This document shows, one piece after another, positions 9,550 through 35,682 of a stretch of 64,000 bases of DNA. Source of the stretch: Gammaproteobacteria bacterium (GTDB lineage: Bacteria > Pseudomonadota > Gammaproteobacteria > JACCYU01); assembly GCA_013695765.1 (NCBI GenBank), contig JACCZW010000103.1:9781-73780 (forward strand). The letters are read 5' to 3'. Each line of letters starts with the position of its first letter. Within the stretch, counting starts at the first letter, position 1. A model generated the notes under the pieces. The model saw only the letters and a list, made by a program, of their open reading frames with translations. It made no database searches and was not told where the DNA came from. A program made the position numbers and the translations under genes.

Positions 9550-9831
9550 CTCCAGTTCCCATTCCCACCACTCTGGCCATCACTGTTTTCCCAGAACTAC
9601 CCCCAATAGAATTAGTTATATAACGCATGGACGGACAATACCCGAAAGCGCCTCTCTTCGGCGAATTTAGAACCGTCCTTAATGTCCTTGTATATAATTT
9701 ATACAAAGTCAGAATGGGTTGCCTGCGGTAGCGCGCGGAAGCCACCTGCCAAATTCTATCGCATCTTGGAATGTGTAATGCTTACGGCTGACGGACGTAG
9801 AAAGCGCGCGACCTGATCGAGACTTCCACCC

Positions 9832-12422: not shown

Positions 12423-12803
12423 TCAGGGATTCGCCCGCCTGCGCGCGGCGGAACGACGCGACGAAGACTTCGCGCCCGAAGCGCCTGTATCGCATAGCGG
12501 AATTGCACAGTCCTGAAGTTGCCCTTGGCAACAGTTCTCGGTCAGGTAGGCCAGCACCGCGTTCATCGCCTCGAAGTCGGCGGTATAAATAAGCGAACGG
12601 CCGTCGCGGCGCTTGCGCACCAGGTGCGCGTGCCTCAGGGCGCTCAAATGAAACGACAACGTCGCGCCCGGCAGTCCCAGCCGCGCCGCGATATCGCCGG
12701 CTGGCGCGCCCGCCGCGCCCTGCTGCATGAGATACCGAAACACATCCAGACGGCTCTCGTGCGCCAGCGCGCTGAGCGCGGCAATGACCCATTCCTTTTC
12801 CAT
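12423..12803 (-). CDS. arsR: ArsR-family metalloregulator
   Basis: The HTH is LDVFRYLMQQGAAGAPAGDIAARLGLPGATLSFHLSALRHAHLV. The C-terminal CCx5C (NCCQGQLQDC) resembles the Acidithiobacillus-type As(III) site. Confidence 0.85.
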   Translation of the reverse strand: MEKEWVIAALSALAHESRLDVFRYLMQQGAAGAPAGDIAARLGLPGATLSFHLSALRHAHLVRKRRDGRSLIYTADFEAMNAVLAYLTENCCQGQLQDCAIPLCDTGASGAKSSSRRSAARRRANP

Positions 12804-13027
12804 ATTTTTAATATTGTGGAAATGTGGATTTATGTCAAGCGTTTCTTTCTGATAACGGCATGGCTCAAAAAGGGAATGAACGCTTCACGCCGGTATCAGC
12901 ATTGACGAGCCGAGAGGCGGACGGCGGAACGGCCGCGAGTAATTGAATCGCGCCCGATCAAGCTTCCGTCAACCGTTCGGGAGCGGTTACTTGAACATCA
13001 AAATCTGCGCTTATCGCAAGATCAAAA

Positions 13028-25407: not shown

Positions 25408-26139
25408 TCAGATCAGCGGTCGTGGCTTTATCGGGCTTTCAAAGTAATCGGCCAATTTCTGCAGAGCCTTGCGATCGAGCAACACGAGCCGCTGCTTGTC
25501 CAGGCCGAAGAGGCCAAGCTTCTGCAGGCGCCGCAGCGTCTTGTTCGTATGCACGAGCGAGATACCGAGCGCGTCGGCGATATGCTGCTGAGTAATGGGA
25601 AAGTCGAGGCTGTCTTTCGTGGCAAGTTCGACCGCTGCTGCGCGTTTGTAAAGGTGGATCAGCAACATGGCGACGCCTTCGAGCGCCGTGCGGCGGCCGC
25701 TGGAAACCAGATTCTCGTCAACCATGCCCTCCTCGTGCGCGGCAAGCCAGGTTATGTCGAAGGCGAGCTCCGGATAGCGGTTGTAGAGTTCCCAGATCTT
25801 GCTGCGCGAGAACACGCACAGTTCAACCTCGGTCAGCGCCTCCACCCCATGCTCTGAATCTCCGAGCAGTTGCGCCTGAAAACCTATCAAATCGCCCGGT
25901 AACAAAAAATTCAGAATCTGGCGGCGGCCATCCGTCAAGGTCTTGAAGCGGAACGCCCACCCGGAAAGTAGGGAGTACAAGCGCGGATCGCAGTCGCCTT
26001 GACGAACGATTTCACGCCCGGCCGACACGTGAATCTGCTCCCGCTTCATCGCGGCGATAAAGTCGAGTTCCTCGACCGTGTTCGGTTTAAATACCGGGAG
26101 CCGCCGCAATGGACATTCCTGGCAGCGAACGTGCTTCAT
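25408..26139 (-). CDS. Crp/Fnr-family transcriptional regulator
   Basis: A cNMP-binding fold is followed by a C-terminal HTH (QQHIADALGISLVHTNKTLRRLQ). N-terminal cysteines are present (CQEC). Confidence 0.8.
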   Translation of the reverse strand: MKHVRCQECPLRRLPVFKPNTVEELDFIAAMKREQIHVSAGREIVRQGDCDPRLYSLLSGWAFRFKTLTDGRRQILNFLLPGDLIGFQAQLLGDSEHGVEALTEVELCVFSRSKIWELYNRYPELAFDITWLAAHEEGMVDENLVSSGRRTALEGVAMLLIHLYKRAAAVELATKDSLDFPITQQHIADALGISLVHTNKTLRRLQKLGLFGLDKQRLVLLDRKALQKLADYFESPIKPRPLI

Positions 26140-26442: not shown

Positions 26443-27183
26443 ATGGCAAATCAAACGGGCGTACATGGCAGCGTGTACCGGAATGATGACTATGTAGCCG
26501 TCAATCGTGTGTCGTGGGGCGCGATCTTAGCGGGCACTATCGTAGCGCTGGCCGTCCAAATCGTTCTGACACTGCTCGGATTCAGCATCGGCCTCGGCGT
26601 AATGAGCCAGGCCACGGACACTAGCGCCTTAGGCGGCGTCGGCATCGGCGGGATGATCTGGCTCGTGGTCAGTACGTTGATATCCCTTTACATCGGTGGC
26701 TATGTTGCGGCTCGTTTAGCCGGCGTACCGACCAAGCCAGATGGCGTTTTGAATGGCGTGGTGGTATGGGCGCTCGCCACGTTGCTGTCACTGTACCTGG
26801 CGACCTCGGCCGTCGGCACCGCCGTTAGCGGCGTCGCGGGCATCATTGGCCAGGGACTCCAAACGGCTACAAGTGGCGCCACCACAGTTGCGCCGGAGGC
26901 CGCCGAGGCGCTTAAACGGAACCCTCAGGAAGCGCGTGAGACGGCGCGCCAGGCGGTTGATGAAGTTCAGCAGCAGTACCGTCAAGTACGCCGGCAAGCG
27001 GGACAGACGCTGAACGAAGCGCAGCAGGAAGCGGCACAGACCGCGCGGCAGGCCGCGCCAGTAGCTTCCGGGGCGGCCTTTGGCGGATTTATCGCGCTGG
27101 TGCTAGGCGCAATCGCGGCGGCGCTGGGCGGCATGGCTGGCATCCCCAAAGACGTAGTGGCTTCCACGGCCACTCGCAGGTAG
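26443..27183 (+). CDS. Membrane protein with glycine-zipper repeats (PhnA-like/general stress)
   Basis: Three hydrophobic Gly-rich helices and a central charged coiled region are present. It clusters with stress genes. Confidence 0.45.
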   Translation: MANQTGVHGSVYRNDDYVAVNRVSWGAILAGTIVALAVQIVLTLLGFSIGLGVMSQATDTSALGGVGIGGMIWLVVSTLISLYIGGYVAARLAGVPTKPDGVLNGVVVWALATLLSLYLATSAVGTAVSGVAGIIGQGLQTATSGATTVAPEAAEALKRNPQEARETARQAVDEVQQQYRQVRRQAGQTLNEAQQEAAQTARQAAPVASGAAFGGFIALVLGAIAAALGGMAGIPKDVVASTATRR

Positions 27184-27404
27184 GAGGTAACCGAGATGAA
27201 AAAGGCGTTATTTCTTGCCGCAGGTCGCTTTATCTGGCGGTTGATTCAGAAACGTTCGCAGAAGAGTAGCGGCAGGCACCGGCACAGCCCGTAGCGGAAT
27301 AGCCGCGGCGGTTGAACTGGCGCAAGTGAATCAAGAAGATGCCCCAAGCTTAGAGCAACAAGTTAAAAAGCTCACGGCAATCAGTGTCATTACCAGGAGA
27401 CTTT

Positions 27405-27677
27405 ATGATCAATTTCATCCTATGGATCATCATCGGCGGCATCATCGGATGGCTCGCAAGCATGGTCATGAAGACCGACGCACAGCAGGGAATAATCCTG
27501 AATATCGTCGTCGGTATCGTCGGCGCGTTTCTCGGCGGCTTGCTGCTTTCGCCGCTGTTCGGCATCGCCAGCATGAACCAAGGCAATTTCAGCATAGCGG
27601 CTTTGTTCATCGCGTTCCTCGGCGCGGTGATCTTGCTGGCAATCGTCAACCTTATCCGCCGCGGTAGCGTGCGTTGA
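27405..27677 (+). CDS. GlsB/YeaQ/YmgE-family stress membrane protein
   Basis: MINFILWIIIGGIIGWLAS…IVVGIVGAFLGG is the family hallmark. Confidence 0.8.
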   Translation: MINFILWIIIGGIIGWLASMVMKTDAQQGIILNIVVGIVGAFLGGLLLSPLFGIASMNQGNFSIAALFIAFLGAVILLAIVNLIRRGSVR

Positions 27678-27705
27678 TCTCGGTCACGAACACTGCAATG
27701 GAGTT

Positions 27706-27987
27706 ATGGACATGTTCACAAAATCTCAATCCAGGCGCCAACGGGCCGCTGACGCGGCGCGCGAGGTCGTTGAAAGAGGGACCGAGGGCGCTGCCGAGGT
27801 GGACAGACGTGCGCGAGAAACCGTCTCTGACGCGGAAGAAGTTGTGCGAGACTCCACTCGTCAGGTGCGGCAGCGGTCGGGCGAAGCCTACCGGGATTTA
27901 GCCGACCTCGCATACAACTATCCCGTGGCAACTATTATGATCACCTTCGCCGCCGGCGCTTTGATGGTGTCGCGCCTGAACCGCTAA
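27706..27987 (+). CDS. DUF883 (ElaB/YqjD-like) membrane-anchored protein
   Basis: A charged helical N-terminus is followed by a C-terminal TM helix (YPVATIMITFAAGALMVSRL). Confidence 0.7.
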   Translation: MDMFTKSQSRRQRAADAAREVVERGTEGAAEVDRRARETVSDAEEVVRDSTRQVRQRSGEAYRDLADLAYNYPVATIMITFAAGALMVSRLNR

Positions 27988-28096
27988 GTCGTGGGGTGGA
28001 TTATCCGAGAACAATCCGGATAACCCATATTACGAAGCTGGTGGATTACGGCGCTGCGCGCTTAAACCACTCTTACACACACCAGGAGAGCATGAC

Positions 28097-28279
28097 ATGA
28101 AAGATCCCAAGACAGACAAAACCGAAGGCAAGGCTGATGGAGTCGTCGGTAAAATTAAAGAGACCGCCGGCAAGGTGCTCGGTGACAAAGACCGTGAAGC
28201 CGAGGGCAAGGGACAGCAAGACAGAGGCCATCTAAAAGAAACTAAAGGCGAGGTCAAGGACAAGTTCAAGGGCAAGTAA
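28097..28279 (+). CDS. CsbD-family general stress protein
   Basis: The 60 aa product KTEGKADGVVGKIKETAGKVLGDKDREAEGKGQQ matches the CsbD repeat. Confidence 0.8.
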   Translation: MKDPKTDKTEGKADGVVGKIKETAGKVLGDKDREAEGKGQQDRGHLKETKGEVKDKFKGK

Positions 28280-28295
28280 ACCGCCATCTACTCGA

Positions 28296-28522: not shown

Positions 28523-29950
28523 CTACAAAGTCCGCAAGAACGCGACCAAATCTCTCTTCTCGGCTTCGGTCAGTTTCGTGCCGACGACAACGTTGAAGAA
28601 TTCGACCGTGTCGTCCAGCGTCAGCAGCCGGCCGTCGTGCAGATAGGGCGGAGAATCCTTGATGCCGCGCAACGGGAAGGTTTTGATCGGACCATCGCCC
28701 GCTGCTTTCCTGCCGTTGATCATCTGCGTCTTGTAAAAGCGCTCGGTCTGCAGATCGTGCATCTGGTTGTCGGTATAGAACGGCGGCTGATGGCAGCTTC
28801 CGCACTTCCCCTTGCCGAAGAACAGTTTCTGCCCGGCCATTTCCGATTTGCTCGCCTTCGCGGAATCGAGTTTGCCGATAAGGTCGAGCTTGGGTGCCGG
28901 CGGAAAATCCAGTATCGACTGGAACTCTGCCATGTTGGCAACCTCGCTGCCGCGCTCGAGGATATTCACGCCTTTCTTGGTCGCAATCACGTTGTCGCCG
29001 TCGAAATACGCGCCGCGTTGCTCGAACTCCGTGAAGTCCTCAATGCTGCGCAACGACCGCTGCGAGCCAAACAAACGCTGAATGTTCACGCCGCGCAAGG
29101 TCGGTATATCGAGGCGGCGCCTGGATTCCTGCGGCCGTGTCTGCGGATCCAGGTGGGTCGCGGCATTGGTATGGCCGTTCGCGTGGCAATCGAAACAGGT
29201 GACACCCAGGCTCGGCCGCTCGGAGCGCCGGTCGGCGGTCAAATTGAACTGCTGCTGGGGCGCCGGCGTGACCAGCAACCGGACTCCGTCCAACTGTTTC
29301 GGCGTCAGGGTGCCGTTGAACAACTCGTAATAATTTTGGGTGGTGACCAGCTGGCCTTTGGTGACATCGCCGAGATCGGGGCGGGTCGTCAAAAACATCG
29401 GTGGGGGAAACTCGGGCAGCAGATGATCCGGCAGATCTAACTCCAGATCGAAGCGCGTCAGGTTGCGGAGCACTTCGCCCTCCTGTTTCTTGATTTCGTC
29501 GATATGAAACTGAGGAAACACCATGCCACCTTCGGCGTGGTTAGGATGCGGCAGCGGCAGAAAACCGGCCGGAAACAACCCCTGGTCGCGGATTTTTTCG
29601 GGGCTCATGCTCGCGAGTTGTTGCCAGGTCACACCGTTTGGTAATTTGATGCGTACGCCTGCCTGAATCGGCTTGCCTTTGGTCATCGTGACGTTCTTGG
29701 CGGGCCGGTCACTCAGATCGTAACGCTGGTCGAGCAGCTTCTTTTGGCGTGCCATGATCTCGGGTTTGGCCGCTTCCATGCGGGCCTTTGTGCTCGCGAA
29801 ACTTTCCTCCTCAACAACCGGAGCGTAGCTCGATGGCGGCGGCTCCTGCGGGTCAGCCGCCGGAGCGGCCGTAGAAAAAATAAGGGCGGTCGCGAATAAT
29901 CCGCCGACCGCCCAATTTACCGGGTTGCCCTGTATCTGATGCTCTGTCAT
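28523..29950 (-). CDS. Di-heme cytochrome c peroxidase (CCP/MauG family)
   Basis: CFDCHANGHT and GKGKCGSCHQPPFYTDNQMHDL match the CCP heme motifs. A signal peptide is present. The start was chosen at MTEHQIQ. Confidence 0.8.
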   Translation of the reverse strand: MTEHQIQGNPVNWAVGGLFATALIFSTAAPAADPQEPPPSSYAPVVEEESFASTKARMEAAKPEIMARQKKLLDQRYDLSDRPAKNVTMTKGKPIQAGVRIKLPNGVTWQQLASMSPEKIRDQGLFPAGFLPLPHPNHAEGGMVFPQFHIDEIKKQEGEVLRNLTRFDLELDLPDHLLPEFPPPMFLTTRPDLGDVTKGQLVTTQNYYELFNGTLTPKQLDGVRLLVTPAPQQQFNLTADRRSERPSLGVTCFDCHANGHTNAATHLDPQTRPQESRRRLDIPTLRGVNIQRLFGSQRSLRSIEDFTEFEQRGAYFDGDNVIATKKGVNILERGSEVANMAEFQSILDFPPAPKLDLIGKLDSAKASKSEMAGQKLFFGKGKCGSCHQPPFYTDNQMHDLQTERFYKTQMINGRKAAGDGPIKTFPLRGIKDSPPYLHDGRLLTLDDTVEFFNVVVGTKLTEAEKRDLVAFLRTL

Positions 29951-30009: not shown

Positions 30010-30251
30010 TCAGTGACAGCAACGCGTTCATGGTGTCGAAATTCGCCGTATAGATAATCGAGCACGTCGCGGCAGTTCATTACAAGCCCCGCGTGGCGCA
30101 GGTTATACAAGTGGAACGCCAGCATCGCCGCGGCAACTCAAGCCGGGCCGCGATCTCGCCAACGGGGCGCGCCGTCCGCCCCCAGCCGCATCAGATAGCG
30201 GAAGACATCCAGGATTTCACAGACTTTTTGCGATAAAGAACTTAAATCCAT
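30010..30251 (-). pseudogene. ArsR-like regulator remnant (paralog of arsR at 12423)
   Basis: MDLSSLSQKVCEILDVFRYLMRLGADGAP… and …MLAFHLYNLRHAGLV align with ArsR but are split by +1/-1 indels in G/C runs (~30124-30170). The wing segment is missing and the 3' end runs into ccp. Confidence 0.4.
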
Positions 30252-30326
30252 TTCCGCGAATTGAACCCGGCCACAAGCGATCTATGAAACGCTATAACCG
30301 GTTAAGAGTAGCTATATTCCATTTCC

Positions 30327-30350
30327 GACAATCAATCCAATTTAACTATT
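30327..30350. promoter_or_regulatory. Perfect 9-6-9 inverted repeat CAATCCAAT-TTAACT-ATTGGATTG, a candidate operator upstream of the arsR-like gene
   Basis: Read directly from the sequence. It lies ~75 bp upstream of the ATG at 30251 on the minus strand. Confidence 0.35.
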
Positions 30351-30720
30351 GGATTGTTGCGATCGTTTATATGAATGGTGCGGCGCTCTGTACTGCGTAC
30401 GTCAGGATCAGCGCATCCGCCCTTCGGGTGTATGCGGGCACCGACCGATCGTTACACATGGCCGTAAAAGACCGCGCCCGAAGTGTCTCTTAATCGGAAT
30501 AACTGACGTCGGGCATCGTGAAACTCAGATTACCGGTGTTGGATGGAAGGTTGGTCTCGTCCGGAAGCGGCGGGCACCTCCGTGGGAAAGGTATTCGAGA
30601 CTTCATTAGAGCCCGGCCTTAGGAAGTGACTCGTTGACTACGCGAGAACACTTCAATAGTCCTAACCACTGCGTGCAGCGGATGCGCCGTCGCGCGGGAT
30701 CGTATTATTTGCAGGTTGTC

Positions 30721-31764
30721 CTACTCAAGCTCCAGGATGGCGTAAGGCGCCTGATGCGGATGCCTGACCGCTGGACTGGTTTCATCCTCCAGCCCCAGAG
30801 CGCGGTCGTTGTCGAAAACCACGAACAGATGAGTTTCGTCCAGCACCGCCACACCCTCGGGTTTGTTGACAAACCGCAGGGGTGTGCCATCGTCAGCCAC
30901 GAACGGCGTGGGCGACCGGTTGGCCTCGAAGTCCTCGATAGAGATCGTCCACAGATAACCACCCAGCAACGCCTTGCCATCGCGCGTCGGCTCCTCGAAG
31001 CTGGTGAGCAACAGCATGCGATTCAGGTAGGCATCGTATTCGATGCTGGACAGGCCCACGGTCTGCGCGATCTCGTGTCGAGGCGCGGGATCGTAATCGT
31101 AGACCAGAGTGAAATCTCCGATAAACGCGAGTTCGTCGTTCTCGATGCGATACGGCGATGAGATCACCTTCATCGTATATTCGAAATTCTCGTGGCTTTC
31201 GCCGAATTCGCGGATCCCGAACAACAATCGATCGGGTTCTTCATCGCCCGGCAGGGTGGTCAGGCCCTCGATCTTGAAGTAGGGCGCCCCGCCGAGAATC
31301 CGGGAAATATCCTTGCGCAGGCTTACGGAACTGGTCACGCCCGCTCTCGTCGTGGGCGCTACGATCCTAACGACCTGCGAACGGCCGGCGGGCCAGATCA
31401 GCAGCATGTTGTAAAGATCGAGTTCCGCGGAGTCGGGCTCGATGCGATCGAATCCGGTCGCCGCGATGACGTATTTGCCGTCCGGCGTCAGGGCGAAGTC
31501 TTCGTACTTGGTGGCCGCCTTGATCAGCGGCGCGGTGTGGTATTCGAACGTCTCCGGCCGCAGCGCGCCGTCGGTATAATCCAGCGAAAACACCGCGGAG
31601 CGCGCGGCGCCCGGTATCGGTTTGTCGCTGGCGAAGACGAGCCGCCTGCCGTCATACACTACGGCCGAGATCTCGGCGTCCACACGTGCGCCTTTCGCGG
31701 CCTTCAGGTCTTCGTCGAAACAGTCGATGAGCCCTGTTTCAACGATGCGCGCTCGCATGGTCAT
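30721..31764 (-). CDS. Esterase-like-activity-of-phytase (phytase-like beta-propeller) family protein
   Basis: The C-terminal KPEGVAVLDETHLFVVFDND has an EGxA-type motif and beta-propeller-like repeats. The chosen start is MTMRARIVETG. Confidence 0.45.
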   Translation of the reverse strand: MTMRARIVETGLIDCFDEDLKAAKGARVDAEISAVVYDGRRLVFASDKPIPGAARSAVFSLDYTDGALRPETFEYHTAPLIKAATKYEDFALTPDGKYVIAATGFDRIEPDSAELDLYNMLLIWPAGRSQVVRIVAPTTRAGVTSSVSLRKDISRILGGAPYFKIEGLTTLPGDEEPDRLLFGIREFGESHENFEYTMKVISSPYRIENDELAFIGDFTLVYDYDPAPRHEIAQTVGLSSIEYDAYLNRMLLLTSFEEPTRDGKALLGGYLWTISIEDFEANRSPTPFVADDGTPLRFVNKPEGVAVLDETHLFVVFDNDRALGLEDETSPAVRHPHQAPYAILELE

Positions 31765-31808
31765 TTGCGGATCATGATGGCAATTGGCTCGCCGGCGCCG
31801 GCACTCGC

Positions 31809-32916
31809 CTAGTCCGGCAAGGCGCTGGTGTTGCGCGGTTCTTCGATTGCGTGCTGGTTGAATTCCTGCCGAAACTGCGTCGAACTCTCGTCCACGGGTT
31901 TGCGCGCGCGCATAATCGAGCCCAGCGGCTGGGTGAGCCGCCAGACCGTGCCACGGACTGAAAGACAGGCCGTCGTCAATGTTGGTAACTCTGGTCTCAC
32001 TCCAGGCGGATTGCGGTTGCACATTGATGCGGGCGACCGCGGCGTACGGACTCTGGTCTTCCGGCCAGATCGTCGAGGCGTCTTCCACCGGCATCATTTC
32101 AAGATCGGTGCAAAGCAGTACGCGCACTTCCCACTCGCCGCGGCTTTCGCTGAAGAAATCGACCACCGCCTCGCGCAGACCGTTGGGCTTGCCGTTAACG
32201 TTAAGCGGCGCGCCGGTCAGATTGGTGAGTTCCGGCGAGACGGGTGCGACAGCAAGCTTCGCGATATGGTCACCGTAGCGCAGCGGCGCCTGCGTGTAGA
32301 AGGTCTCGCCCAGAATATGCGTTTCGCGCTGGCCGCCCAGGGTCTTTAAGGTGGGGCTCTCGCCGCCGAAACTTTCCACCACCGTTTCGGCGCCGCGCAT
32401 CACGGCTGAAAAAGCCTTCTTCCAGACTTGCGGCGTATCGGTGGTCACCGCCAGCAGCTTGAGGTTTTTCAGGAACGCTTTGGCGTCGGGCGCGGCAAAG
32501 GCTGGCGCGTTGGCCGTGACGAAATCCTGGGTCACGTGATTTTCCGTTCCCGGCAGGCGTTCTCCTTCGACGCCGATCACCTTGATCGTCAGACCGCGCG
32601 GCGCGGACACGCTGTCATCCACGATATCGCCAGGATTGGTGGACAGACGCATCACCACCGGATACACGGCCGGCCGTGCGAACAGCCCTTGCGCCAGAGC
32701 CGGCGGCAGGTCGTCCAGCACGCGCAATTCACCACGTAACAGGCCGTGACTCTTGGCGTGTACGCTGCGCACCGCGCGCCCATAATCCTTGGAGGTCGTC
32801 TCGCTGATCTTGCGCATGGTGTCGATCAGTGCCTCGATGGTTTCGGACTCGTCATCCTGCACCTGTTCGGCGGACGGATCGTAAGGCAAAGGGCGGGCGG
32901 TAGTGGCATTGGACAT
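31809..32916 (-). CDS. Catalase-related (mini-catalase, allene-oxide-synthase-like) heme protein, frameshift near 31931
   Basis: The distal-His motif (RAVRSVHAKSHGLL) and VYPVVMRLSTNPG are present. After …WHGLAAH the +1 frame continues PLGSIMRARKPVDESSTQFRQEFN…LPD and reaches a stop at 31809. Confidence 0.6.
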
Positions 32917-32954
32917 AAACAGGCTCCGGTTGGATCAGACGTTCAAAAGCATCT

Positions 32955-33352
32955 TCAGCGTTTGGCGCGCGACAGCAGTTGCCGCGGTGACTCGATCGAC
33001 ACTAGCCCGGCGATGCGCTCGCGTCGCGTATAGACGTTAAATCGCTCGCCGCGCAGAAAGCCAATCAGGGTGACACCGAACTGCTCCGCCAGCCGCACGG
33101 CGAAACTGCTGGCGCGGAGATGGCGCACACCACCGGCACGCGCGCCATAATCGCTTTCTGCAACAACTCGAAGCTCGCGCGTCCGCTCAAGAGCACGATT
33201 CCTTCGTGCAACGGCAACTTGTCGTTCAACAGCGCCCAGCCACACAGCTTGTCCATCGCATTGTGCCGCCCTACGGCTTCGTGCGCAGCGAGAAGCTCGC
33301 CGCGAGGATCGAAGAGTGCTGCCGCGTGCAAACCGCCGGTGTACCTGAACAC
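32955..33352 (-). pseudogene. fdhD: FdhD (formate dehydrogenase sulfurtransferase) C-terminal fragment
   Basis: [38 protein letters not shown] … [26 protein letters not shown] | [31 protein letters not shown]. One frameshift sits at the C run near 33112. The N-terminal ~170 aa, including the CGxCG motif, are absent. Confidence 0.55.
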
Positions 33353-33436
33353 GTGCTGCGCCGCGCGGAGTTTTTAGGCAGACCAGCCACAAAATCCGCG
33401 CTGATTTGCGGGCCGGCTGGCAGCGAGAGCAGCGCT

Positions 33437-33649
33437 TCAAGCGGTTCGCAGCTCGCAGATGCGCACCAGCTTGCCGCCGACGCGCACCCAGCAGGTAACG
33501 CAGGTCTTGATCGCGCCCAAGCTCGGGTGGTAACAAACGTGCGGCAGATTGATCTTCTGTGCCGCGAGGAAGTCGACCAGCGGCTGATCGGGCTTCCCCG
33601 TATAAGCCTGACCATCCACATGAACGATGCAGCGCTGGGGTTCCGCCAT
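33437..33649 (-). CDS. Small 2Fe-2S (Fer2_4/NuoG-type) domain protein, possibly an N-terminal stub of a formate dehydrogenase alpha subunit
   Basis: CYHPSLGAIKTCVTCWVRVGGKLVRIC has the Cx10Cx2Cx11C pattern. A strong AAGGAG Shine-Dalgarno lies 5 nt upstream. The ORF ends right where a large catalytic subunit would continue. Confidence 0.45.
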   Translation of the reverse strand: MAEPQRCIVHVDGQAYTGKPDQPLVDFLAAQKINLPHVCYHPSLGAIKTCVTCWVRVGGKLVRICELRTA

Positions 33650-34116
33650 TACAACTCCTTAAAAAATTTTATCCGCGCTCGGCACTGGCCGCATGCGCTT
33701 CATTTACTGGAATGAAGTGCTCGAACACGGCAGGGACTGGCGGCGCTGGCGTCTGACTCCACGGCTTCAAAGCAAGCTGTATGCCATGCCGCCGGCTGCG
33801 CGGTGACGGGAACATCCGGGCACGGGTTTCGGGGAGGGCGCCGCCCGCGTGTGTAAAATAAGCGCTAAATTTACATCGCGTTTTGAAAAATTTACCGATG
33901 CGATGTCCCGCAGCAGGCAGCCGCGGCATGCGAGATATGGCGGCGAGCCAAGTCGGGTGGATAAAGTCCGCCGTCCGATTCGACAAGCACACGCAGGCTT
34001 TGCGGGCGTATCCACCGACCAGAGACATAAAGCGTTTTGTGACAGCCGCCGCTTCGGGTATGGTGGCGCTCGCGGCCATCGCCGCCGTCAAATCGATCAG
34101 GGTTCGATAATCGGGA

Positions 34117-35682
34117 GTGGCTACGTTGGCAGAAGCGGGGACAGCAGGGCCGCGGGCAGTGAACGCCGAGGCAGGCGCGCACGGCCTTAAGGCCAACGCG
34201 GTGGGGTTTATCAGCGTGCTGGTGATCGGGCTTGCCTCCACAGCGCCGGCCTACTCGCTGGCGGCGGTCATCGGCGTGGTCGTCGTGCTGGTAGGCGTGC
34301 AGGCGCCGGCGGCCTTGTTGACGAGCTTTATCCCCATGTTCTTCATCGCCGCGGCCTTTTATTATATGAATCGGGCCGACCCGGATTGTGGTACGTCGTT
34401 CTCGTGGGTCACCCGGGCAATGGGACCGTGGGTCGGCTGGATGGCCGGCTGGGCGGTGTGTGCTACAAGCATCCTCGTGATCGGCTCGCTGGCGGACGTC
34501 GCCGCACGTTATACGTTTCTGCTGTTCGATCTCGATGTACTGGCCGCCTCGAAAGTGGCCGTCACTATCCTGGCCGTGCTCTACATCGCCGTGCTGACAT
34601 GGATCGCCGTCGTCGGCATCGAACTCTCCGCGCGCCTGCAGGACGTGCTGATCGTGGCGCAGGTTCTGGCGCTGCTGCTCTTCGCCAGCGTCGCCCTGAT
34701 CAGCGTCTTCAATGGCACAGCGCCGGGGGGTTCCTTGCTGCCGGAACTGGCCTGGTTCTCTCCTTTCGCAATCTCCAGTCCGGACGCGCTTATCGGCAGT
34801 CTGCTGATCGGTGTGTTCATTTACTGGGGCTGGGAAAGCGCGGTGAACAGCACCGAGGAGAGCACGGACAGCGCAACCACGCCGGGTCTGGCCGCGATCT
34901 GCGCCACGATTATCCTGCTGATTACTTACCTTTCGGTGAGCACCGCGGTGGTGGCTTTTGCAGGCCTCGCGACCGTGGAGGGGTTCGCGGATAACGACAC
35001 GATATTAAGCCACGTGGCGACCGACGTGCTGGGTTCGCCGTGGGACAAGTTTGTCGTGCTGGCCGTGCTGACCTCGGCGCTGGCCGCCACGCAGACCACG
35101 ATCATTCCCTCCTCGCGCACCACGCTCTCCATGGCGCGTGCGCGCGCGATGCCCGATGCGCTGGCCCGCGTTCATCACCGCTTTCAAACACCGCACATTG
35201 CGACCATTATCACCGGCGTCGCGGGGATCGCCTGGTACGTATCGATCAAGTTCCTGTCCGAGAGCTTCCTGCTTGATACGCTCTCGGCGTTGTCGCTGCT
35301 GGTCGCCTTTTACTATTCGCTCTCCGGCTTCGCGTGCGTGATCTATTACCGCCGCGAGTTGCTCAAGAGCGCCAGGAATTTTGTTTTTATTGGTGTCGCG
35401 CCCATGCTCGGCGCCATGCTGCTGGCGTACATATTTTTCATGTCCATGGCGAGCCTGGCCGAACCGCGCGACTCGTACACCGGCGCGGCCGTGTTCGGGC
35501 TCGGCCTGCCGCTGGTAATCGGGCTTGGATTCCTGCTACTGGGCTTGGTGCTGATGATACTTTGGCGTCTCATGGGCGACGGGACCTTCTTCGGCCGCAC
35601 GGCATTCCAGGCCGTGGATCCGGAGGTCGCCGCCGGCAAAGTCGCGACGCAGGAAACCGCCGGCGCCCCGGCGGGAAGTTGA
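34117..35682 (+). CDS. APC-superfamily amino acid permease
   Basis: ~12 TM segments with typical APC architecture. The start is uncertain. Confidence 0.7.
   Translation: MATLAEAGTAGPRAVNAEAGAHGLKANAVGFISVLVIGLASTAPAYSLAAVIGVVVVLVGVQAPAALLTSFIPMFFIAAAFYYMNRADPDCGTSFSWVTRAMGPWVGWMAGWAVCATSILVIGSLADVAARYTFLLFDLDVLAASKVAVTILAVLYIAVLTWIAVVGIELSARLQDVLIVAQVLALLLFASVALISVFNGTAPGGSLLPELAWFSPFAISSPDALIGSLLIGVFIYWGWESAVNSTEESTDSATTPGLAAICATIILLITYLSVSTAVVAFAGLATVEGFADNDTILSHVATDVLGSPWDKFVVLAVLTSALAATQTTIIPSSRTTLSMARARAMPDALARVHHRFQTPHIATIITGVAGIAWYVSIKFLSESFLLDTLSALSLLVAFYYSLSGFACVIYYRRELLKSARNFVFIGVAPMLGAMLLAYIFFMSMASLAEPRDSYTGAAVFGLGLPLVIGLGFLLLGLVLMILWRLMGDGTFFGRTAFQAVDPEVAAGKVATQETAGAPAGS

Follow-up and report, generated by a model that had tools for sequence, protein, structure and literature searches.

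A probable catalase-fold pseudogene reads by frameshift into an intact β-propeller gene in a gammaproteobacterial contig

We analyzed a stretch of 64,000 nucleotides from contig JACCZW010000103.1 of a Gammaproteobacteria bacterium (positions 9,781 to 73,780; hereafter the window), whose minus strand carries at 30721..32916 one uninterrupted open reading frame (ORF) of 731 amino acids (aa) in the program-made ORF listing. The initial annotation of this locus had described a small catalase-related heme protein, resembling allene oxide synthases (AOS), partnered with a phytase-like β-propeller gene in a possible peroxide/oxylipin module. Our analysis points to a plainer account: the locus very probably holds a recently dead gene of a known, uncharacterized family of catalase-fold proteins, which lies by chance upstream of an intact and unrelated propeller gene. 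The 731-aa ORF that spans the two is a read-through artifact, an accident of frame.

Residues 1 to ~328 of the ORF align end to end with 357–374-aa proteins to which NCBI and UniRef give the name "catalase family protein", and from residue ~329 this family similarity is gone. The C-terminus typical of the family (HQPLGSIMRARKP..SSTQFRQEFNQHAIEEPRNTSALPD; …HQPLGSIMRARKPVDESSTQFRQEFNQHAIEEPRNTSALPD) is found in the +1 frame, as had been recognized in the initial annotation, and terminates there at a TAG stop (31811-31809); the ORF listing includes a 71-aa ORF in a different frame that ends at 31809. Aligning the DNA with that of a relative at 82% identity in which the gene is intact (locus L001) shows a single extra C in the run 31931-31933 on the minus strand (CACCCAG in the window, CA-CCGG in L001), such that the surrounding motif reads GCTCACCCAGCC in the window and GCGCA-CCGGCC in L001. 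The shifted frame, whose fusion-specific linker residues start PAAGLDYARAQTRGREFDAVSAGIQPARNRR…, is free of stop codons for ~57 codons and then coincides with the frame of the propeller gene; the one-base insertion and this coincidence together account for the single 731-aa ORF. The catalase-family pseudogene, with an ancestral length of 368 aa, accordingly occupies 31809..32916 on the minus strand, and a spacer of 44 bp (31765..31808, same strand) separates its ancestral stop from the ATG of the propeller gene, compared to an intergenic spacer of 160 bp in L001. A scan of 30200-34200 yielded no promoter-like sites and two terminator-like matches, fewer than in shuffled controls.

The window, whose PanC, Ffh, and RadA proteins exactly match MBA2410247.1, MBA2410262.1, and MBA2410265.1, belongs to an NCBI metagenome-assembled genome, and the same lesion recurs in other public assemblies. 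A contig from JGI (Ga0136630_1009422; L090) is 99.95% identical to the window over 3.9 kb, with 2 differences elsewhere and an identical frameshift motif, and contigs from ENA (ERZ27252444; L170) and Logan (SRR6263736; L171) carry the 731-aa gene call with 1 nucleotide different from the window. Two further NCBI contigs, one with the full 731-aa call, fall in the same protein cluster. The presence of an identical frameshift in several other assemblies excludes a misassembly confined to the window.

Searches with the catalase-like N-terminal part returned 5396 homolog matches, the best of which, P0001 (82% identical, 368 aa), is encoded on L001. When the single frame-repaired protein was compared with Pfam, NCBIfam, and PDB sequences, the only match was to Catalase and was sub-threshold (18.1 bits on Pfam PF00199, for which the gathering cut-off is 25); a family profile was therefore needed. 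This profile, comprising 9 sequences, matches bovine and human catalases with an E-value of about 1e-4 and aligns RSVHAKSHG…VVLRLSTNPG…PRGLAVK with RVVHAKGAG…IAVRFSTVAG…PRGFAVK, and a second segment with the β-barrel. In the window, VHAKSHG and VVMRLSTNPG are the motifs that pair with RVVHAKGAG and IAVRFSTVAG of the bovine and human enzymes in the profile search, and the distal-His motif RxVHAKxHG is shared by the window and 113/120 homologs. The fold was examined using an AlphaFold2 (AF2) model of the intact homolog P0001 (predicted local distance difference test, pLDDT, 83.8), not of the broken window copy. Foldseek matched this model to catalases, 3E4W, and 1U5U with E-values of 1e-9 to 1e-12 (catalases down to 3.5e-12), and also to chanoclavine synthase (9JDB). 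Because the PF00199 score is sub-threshold, membership in the superfamily rests instead on the profile and fold evidence, by which the gene is predicted to belong to the small proteins with a catalase-core fold ("mini-catalases"). The earlier recognition of a catalase-like N-terminus with distal motifs is thereby borne out, by homology over the full length of the family as well as by the profile match to the bovine and human enzymes, and the assignment to a small, catalase-related/AOS-like type is right at the level of fold, at which the P0001 model matches 3E4W/3E4Y and 1U5U. No NCBI protein corresponding to the catalase-like gene of the window was found among the 120 top matches or in a cluster look-up, and a search of the literature on bacterial mini-catalase/catalase-related proteins and on DUF3616 found no characterization of either this family or that of the propeller.

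Two conserved positions have been altered in the window copy. The motifs of the family place the distal His in RxVHAKxHG and the proximal Arg/Tyr in MRARKxaY. From a reading of the motifs, we take MRARKPAY to be the counterpart of MLQGRLFAY in classical catalases, i.e., the proximal Arg/Tyr heme-ligand pair. Tyr342 within this motif is conserved as Y in 119/120 homologs and is invariant in alignment A4; in the window it is replaced by Asp (codon GAC, 31890-31892) and is also out of frame. Gln267, invariant in 30/30 sequences of a 30-member alignment, is replaced by Leu (codon 32116-32118). The inserted C sits just before the helix that bears the putative heme-ligand tyrosine, and repairing the frame leaves both Asp342 and Leu267, so a normal protein is not restored.

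The downstream gene (30721..31764, minus strand) is an intact gene for a cytoplasmic β-propeller of 347 aa, as judged from its homologs, fold model, and ratio of nonsynonymous to synonymous substitution rates (dN/dS). It starts at ATG 31764 (MTMRARIVETG…), and the initial annotation had correctly set it apart as a gene of its own: in NCBI it has an entry of its own, a hypothetical protein of 345 aa (MBA2410242.1) whose call begins at the second ATG (31758), and about 400 full-length homologs of 345–350 aa are found, mostly unnamed and mainly from Salinisphaera and Halomonadaceae. A few members of the family occur in Desulfonema and Beggiatoa-like genomes, and the invariant motifs of the family include SDKPxPG, KYEDFALT, TGFDR, GLSSxEYD, and TSFE. 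The AF2 model (pLDDT 88.7, predicted template modeling score, pTM, 0.90) is nearly all β, and every Foldseek match to it is a propeller, generic and with a template modeling (TM) score <0.5. The propeller fold put forward previously is thus well founded, and the phytase-like part is weak: UniRef labels some homologs DUF3616 or Phytase-like, and similarity to PF13449 is detected in 14/18 members, in all cases sub-threshold (best E-value 0.0055), with the window protein scoring 13.4 bits vs a gathering threshold of 27.6. A sequence search found no solved structural relative, no signal peptide was apparent by inspection, and clustering of ORFs across 83 loci found no conserved neighbor, the best cluster being present in 25/83 loci and ~5 kb away. 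The family, with its ~400 members, sub-threshold Pfam similarity, and enzyme-like fold, is uncharacterized. In every relative compared the propeller gene is intact, with dN/dS of 0.14–0.27; it is under purifying selection, and its own ATG is the most likely start of translation.

The two genes have fared differently among close relatives. L001 is the sole relative with an intact catalase-like gene, and its propeller gene is intact, adjacent, and co-oriented across the 160-bp gap. In L091 and L092 (90–93% nucleotide identity to the window), only codons 220–368 of the catalase-like gene are left, with no frameshift and with the tyrosine kept (…AAHQPLGSIMRARKPVYESS…); the deleted segment corresponds to 33733..32250 of the window, and codons 1–219 are gone together with the fdhD/Fer2 remnants described below. 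Translation of the L091 remnant continues through its end, where the ancestral TAG stop is now CAG. At ~5720-5770 of L091, this stop-less remnant runs just past the start codon of the propeller gene, a second and independent read-through at the same junction. In L002, a relative at 77%, the catalase-like gene is absent, and the propeller gene is 190 bp from an amino-acid permease gene; this gene and the CopD gene near the L002 propeller are those that flank the locus in the window. The catalase-like gene has thus been lost independently in close relatives: by frameshift with loss of the ligand, by 5′ deletion with loss of the stop, and by complete absence.

We propose that the insertion of a single C at 31931-31933 would have broken a catalase-fold gene of ~368 aa ahead of the helix with its putative heme-ligand tyrosine, which would itself also have been mutated to Asp. 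The shifted frame would by chance have been open for ~57 codons in register with the propeller gene, generating the 731-aa ORF, and the propeller gene would have been retained and translated from its own ATG. By inference, the locus yields no working catalase-like protein, and the propeller is expressed independently. Several points weigh against this account. The catalase remnant has a dN/dS of 0.33 vs L091, calculated from only ~16 substitutions and indistinguishable from that of a live gene; its low discriminating power fits a very recent inactivation. A fusion protein or a truncated one may still be made from the locus. The further assemblies with the frameshift may stem from related samples of one population, and they record a single mutational event. 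Lastly, the intact, adjacent, and co-oriented pair in L001, with its 160-bp gap, may be compatible with an operon ancestral to this lineage. Under this reading, the two genes would have formed an operon specific to the lineage, with linked roles related to peroxide, and would later have ceased to be needed, so that the catalase half decayed repeatedly and the earlier state is still present in L001; we consider it, and likewise an interesting function for the propeller family, very improbable.

The pairing of the two genes was assessed in 80 propeller loci from GTDB species-representative genomes (±10 kb) and 80 from metagenomes, representing the best 80 per scan, in which the catalase-like gene was sought by tblastn with the repaired protein. 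No catalase-family gene was found in the fetched flanks of any of the 159 loci whose propeller homolog has <70% identity; 129 of these loci had at least 1.5 kb of upstream sequence, and 84 extended 9 kb or more in each direction. The pair is adjacent solely in L001, in the population of the window (L090, L170, L171), and, as a truncated remnant, in L091/L092. Approached from the other gene, the catalase-family loci L085–L089 (five contigs, three contexts) contain neither a propeller nor a lipoxygenase (LOX) gene, and the catalase-family genes stand alone, beside type I restriction genes, a TetR regulator or malic enzyme, or a ribose operon. Inspection of L001 and L085–L089 identified no LOX or fatty-acid oxygenase near the family members, and in the window the neighbors of the catalase-like pseudogene are the propeller gene and the fdhD/Fer2 remnants. 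Repeated loss of the catalase gene beside a propeller gene that stays intact runs counter to the expectation for an obligate partnership. The two genes are unrelated neighbors whose adjacency is an accident of one lineage and does not define a functional module.

These data bear directly on the earlier suggestion of a conserved two-gene peroxide/oxylipin module, under which the frameshift would amount only to a sequencing error, or to a recent accident that befell a functional system. In L001 the two genes are both whole and lie side by side on one strand; the evidence confirms a catalase fold, similar to that of the LOX-partnered 1U5U (TM 0.56); and a gene for a di-heme protein similar to MauG and cytochrome c peroxidase (CCP) is nearby, all of which would suit such a module. 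However, the fetched flanks of the 159 more distant propeller loci are devoid of catalase-family neighbors, the catalase gene is absent from L002, the catalase-family loci L085–L089 lack both propeller and LOX, the catalase gene has been lost in three ways in close relatives that kept the propeller, and the di-heme gene stands alone elsewhere. With its catalase copy dead and the pair essentially confined to one narrow lineage rather than co-conserved elsewhere, the module is very improbable, and no gene for a fatty-acid-oxygenating enzyme, the kind of partner known for catalase-related domains, is found near the family members examined.

It is extremely unlikely that a homopolymer miscall during assembly or sequencing accounts for the extra C and that the gene is really intact. 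Only one base within a short run of C is affected, and the window is a metagenome-assembled contig, as would be expected of such an error, but the identical lesion occurs in the JGI, ENA, and Logan contigs from other runs or samples, the repaired frame still has Asp for Tyr342 and Leu for Gln267, and other inactivating lesions of the same gene are present in sister lineages. We likewise give next to no credence to the 731-aa ORF as a genuine fusion protein, or to programmed +1 frameshifting that restores a functional catalase: the ORF is uninterrupted and stably present in several assemblies of the population, but its 57 out-of-frame residues replace the proximal helix (Arg338/Tyr342), so that the catalase domain would be unable to ligate heme, no fusion is seen among the 5396 catalase-family or about 400 propeller homologs (typically 357–374 and 345–350 aa, respectively), a shifted frame that stays open for 57 codons is unremarkable at 62% GC (roughly 0.1–0.2 by our own estimate), and inspection of CAC-CCA-GCC revealed no recognized shift-prone motif. 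Programmed frameshifting was rejected on the further ground that the restored frame carries Asp342 and is without the putative heme ligand.

The account of a dead catalase-fold gene beside an unrelated propeller gene is an ordinary finding, and the propeller was already known to NCBI as a separate hypothetical protein. For the biology of catalases and oxylipins it raises no new question. It does offer a caution, in that a long "fusion" ORF of unrelated domains can arise from a one-base frameshift in a pseudogene that runs into the next gene, and adjacency in a single genome does not argue for a module. As a clean, small case, the locus also shows closely related environmental populations losing one gene repeatedly and independently and keeping its neighbor, and it draws attention to two widespread, uncharacterized families, the catalase-fold proteins of ~368 aa and the propellers of ~347 aa.

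The locus lies in a patchwork stretch between the permease gene (34117-35682) and the cytochrome oxidase genes. Upstream of the catalase-like pseudogene are remnants of a formate dehydrogenase cluster (32955..33649, minus strand), consisting of an fdhD gene split over frames and a 70-aa N-terminal stub of a 2Fe-2S (Fer2_4) protein, which are deleted in L091/L092. On the other side, beyond the propeller gene, is a remnant of an arsR/SmtB-type regulator gene (~30017..30251, minus strand), interrupted by a stop codon and by changes of frame, which aligns with the ArsR of L002 at 51% over 55 aa and does not have an intact frame. Taken together, the fdhD, Fer2, and arsR remnants mark the stretch as a zone of gene decay. 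Both the degenerate ArsR-type regulator and the perfect 9-6-9 palindrome upstream of it (CAATCCAAT-N6-ATTGGATTG; 30333..30356) are present as the initial annotation had them. The palindrome arms CAATCCAAT and ATTGGATTG are kept in the 91%-identical L091 (7176-7199), and the 6-nucleotide spacer differs at three positions. This pattern hints that the palindrome may be a putative operator still under constraint despite the adjacent arsR pseudogene. An intact arsR paralog is present at ~12495-12845, in the ars operon at ~10.9-12.8 kb, and its product could be a candidate for binding the palindrome.

The nearby di-heme protein is periplasmic and probably comprises 475 aa (28523..29950, minus strand), with an N-terminal extension of ~230 aa and two CxxCH motifs (CFDCH and CGSCH). 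The first 27 codons of its longer, 502-aa ORF, which starts at 30031, are arsR-remnant sequence, so the start is probably ATG 29950. The two CxxCH motifs support the di-heme part of its earlier designation as a di-heme CCP; the CCP part is less secure, with NCBIfam matches to MauG, MbnH, and CCP that are partial and far sub-threshold (38.5 bits vs a cut-off of 443.85). Public records, including MBA2410241.1, label the protein "cytochrome B6", apparently a misnomer. Its homologs (58–70%), labeled "cytochrome b6" or hypothetical, are found on plasmids of Legionella, Sinorhizobium, and Methylocystis; in both plasmid contexts examined (Legionella and Sinorhizobium) the gene stands alone, and one homolog is ~1 kb upstream of nifHDK. 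A link to the di-heme fatty-acid dioxygenases of Pseudomonas (PMC4496055) was considered and set aside, given that the gene stands alone elsewhere. Nothing in the surroundings ties the di-heme gene functionally to the catalase pseudogene. Farther along, 26443-28287 holds small genes of a general-stress type, as seen from inspection of their translations, including those for a CsbD-like protein of 60 aa (28097-28279) and a GlsB/YeaQ-like membrane protein (27384-27677), and is adjoined by a gene for a Crp/Fnr-family regulator (25408-26139; Pfam cNMP_binding and HTH_Crp_2). L002 is without the whole stress-type block and the di-heme gene.

Comparison with known systems places both families among broad structural groups. 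The propeller shares its β-propeller fold with the phytase-like/DUF3616-type propellers (PF13449, "Esterase-like activity of phytase"), to which its Pfam match is sub-threshold. The catalase-like family can be compared with proteins that consist of the catalase core only, namely the 33-kDa catalase-related protein of M. avium subsp. paratuberculosis (3E4W/3E4Y), to which the P0001 model has a target-normalized TM score of 0.66–0.68, and the catalase-related AOS of corals (1U5U, 3DY5), for which the TM score is 0.56 with 1U5U. Sequence identity to 3E4W/3E4Y and 1U5U is just 13–17%, and the family profile, run to E ≤ 1, recovers classical catalases and none of these structures; unlike the LOX-partnered AOS, the family has neither a LOX fusion nor a LOX neighbor in the loci examined. 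On sequence, the catalase-fold clade of the window stands apart from those of AOS and MAP-2744c. Classical heme catalases (bovine 4BLC, human 1DGF; PF00199) align with the family in the segments of the distal His and β-barrel and are ~130 residues longer (~500 vs 368 aa). The closest counterpart is the proteobacterial "catalase family protein" clade of Pseudomonas, Paraburkholderia, Methylobacterium, and Azospirillum (~360–370 aa), to which the frame-repaired window protein is 62–82% identical over its full length and with which the repaired gene shares its length and the distal RxVHAKxHG motif, together with the catalase-core fold as seen in the P0001 model. What sets the window copy apart from this clade is its frameshift, along with two substitutions, Asp for the proximal Tyr and Leu for Gln267.

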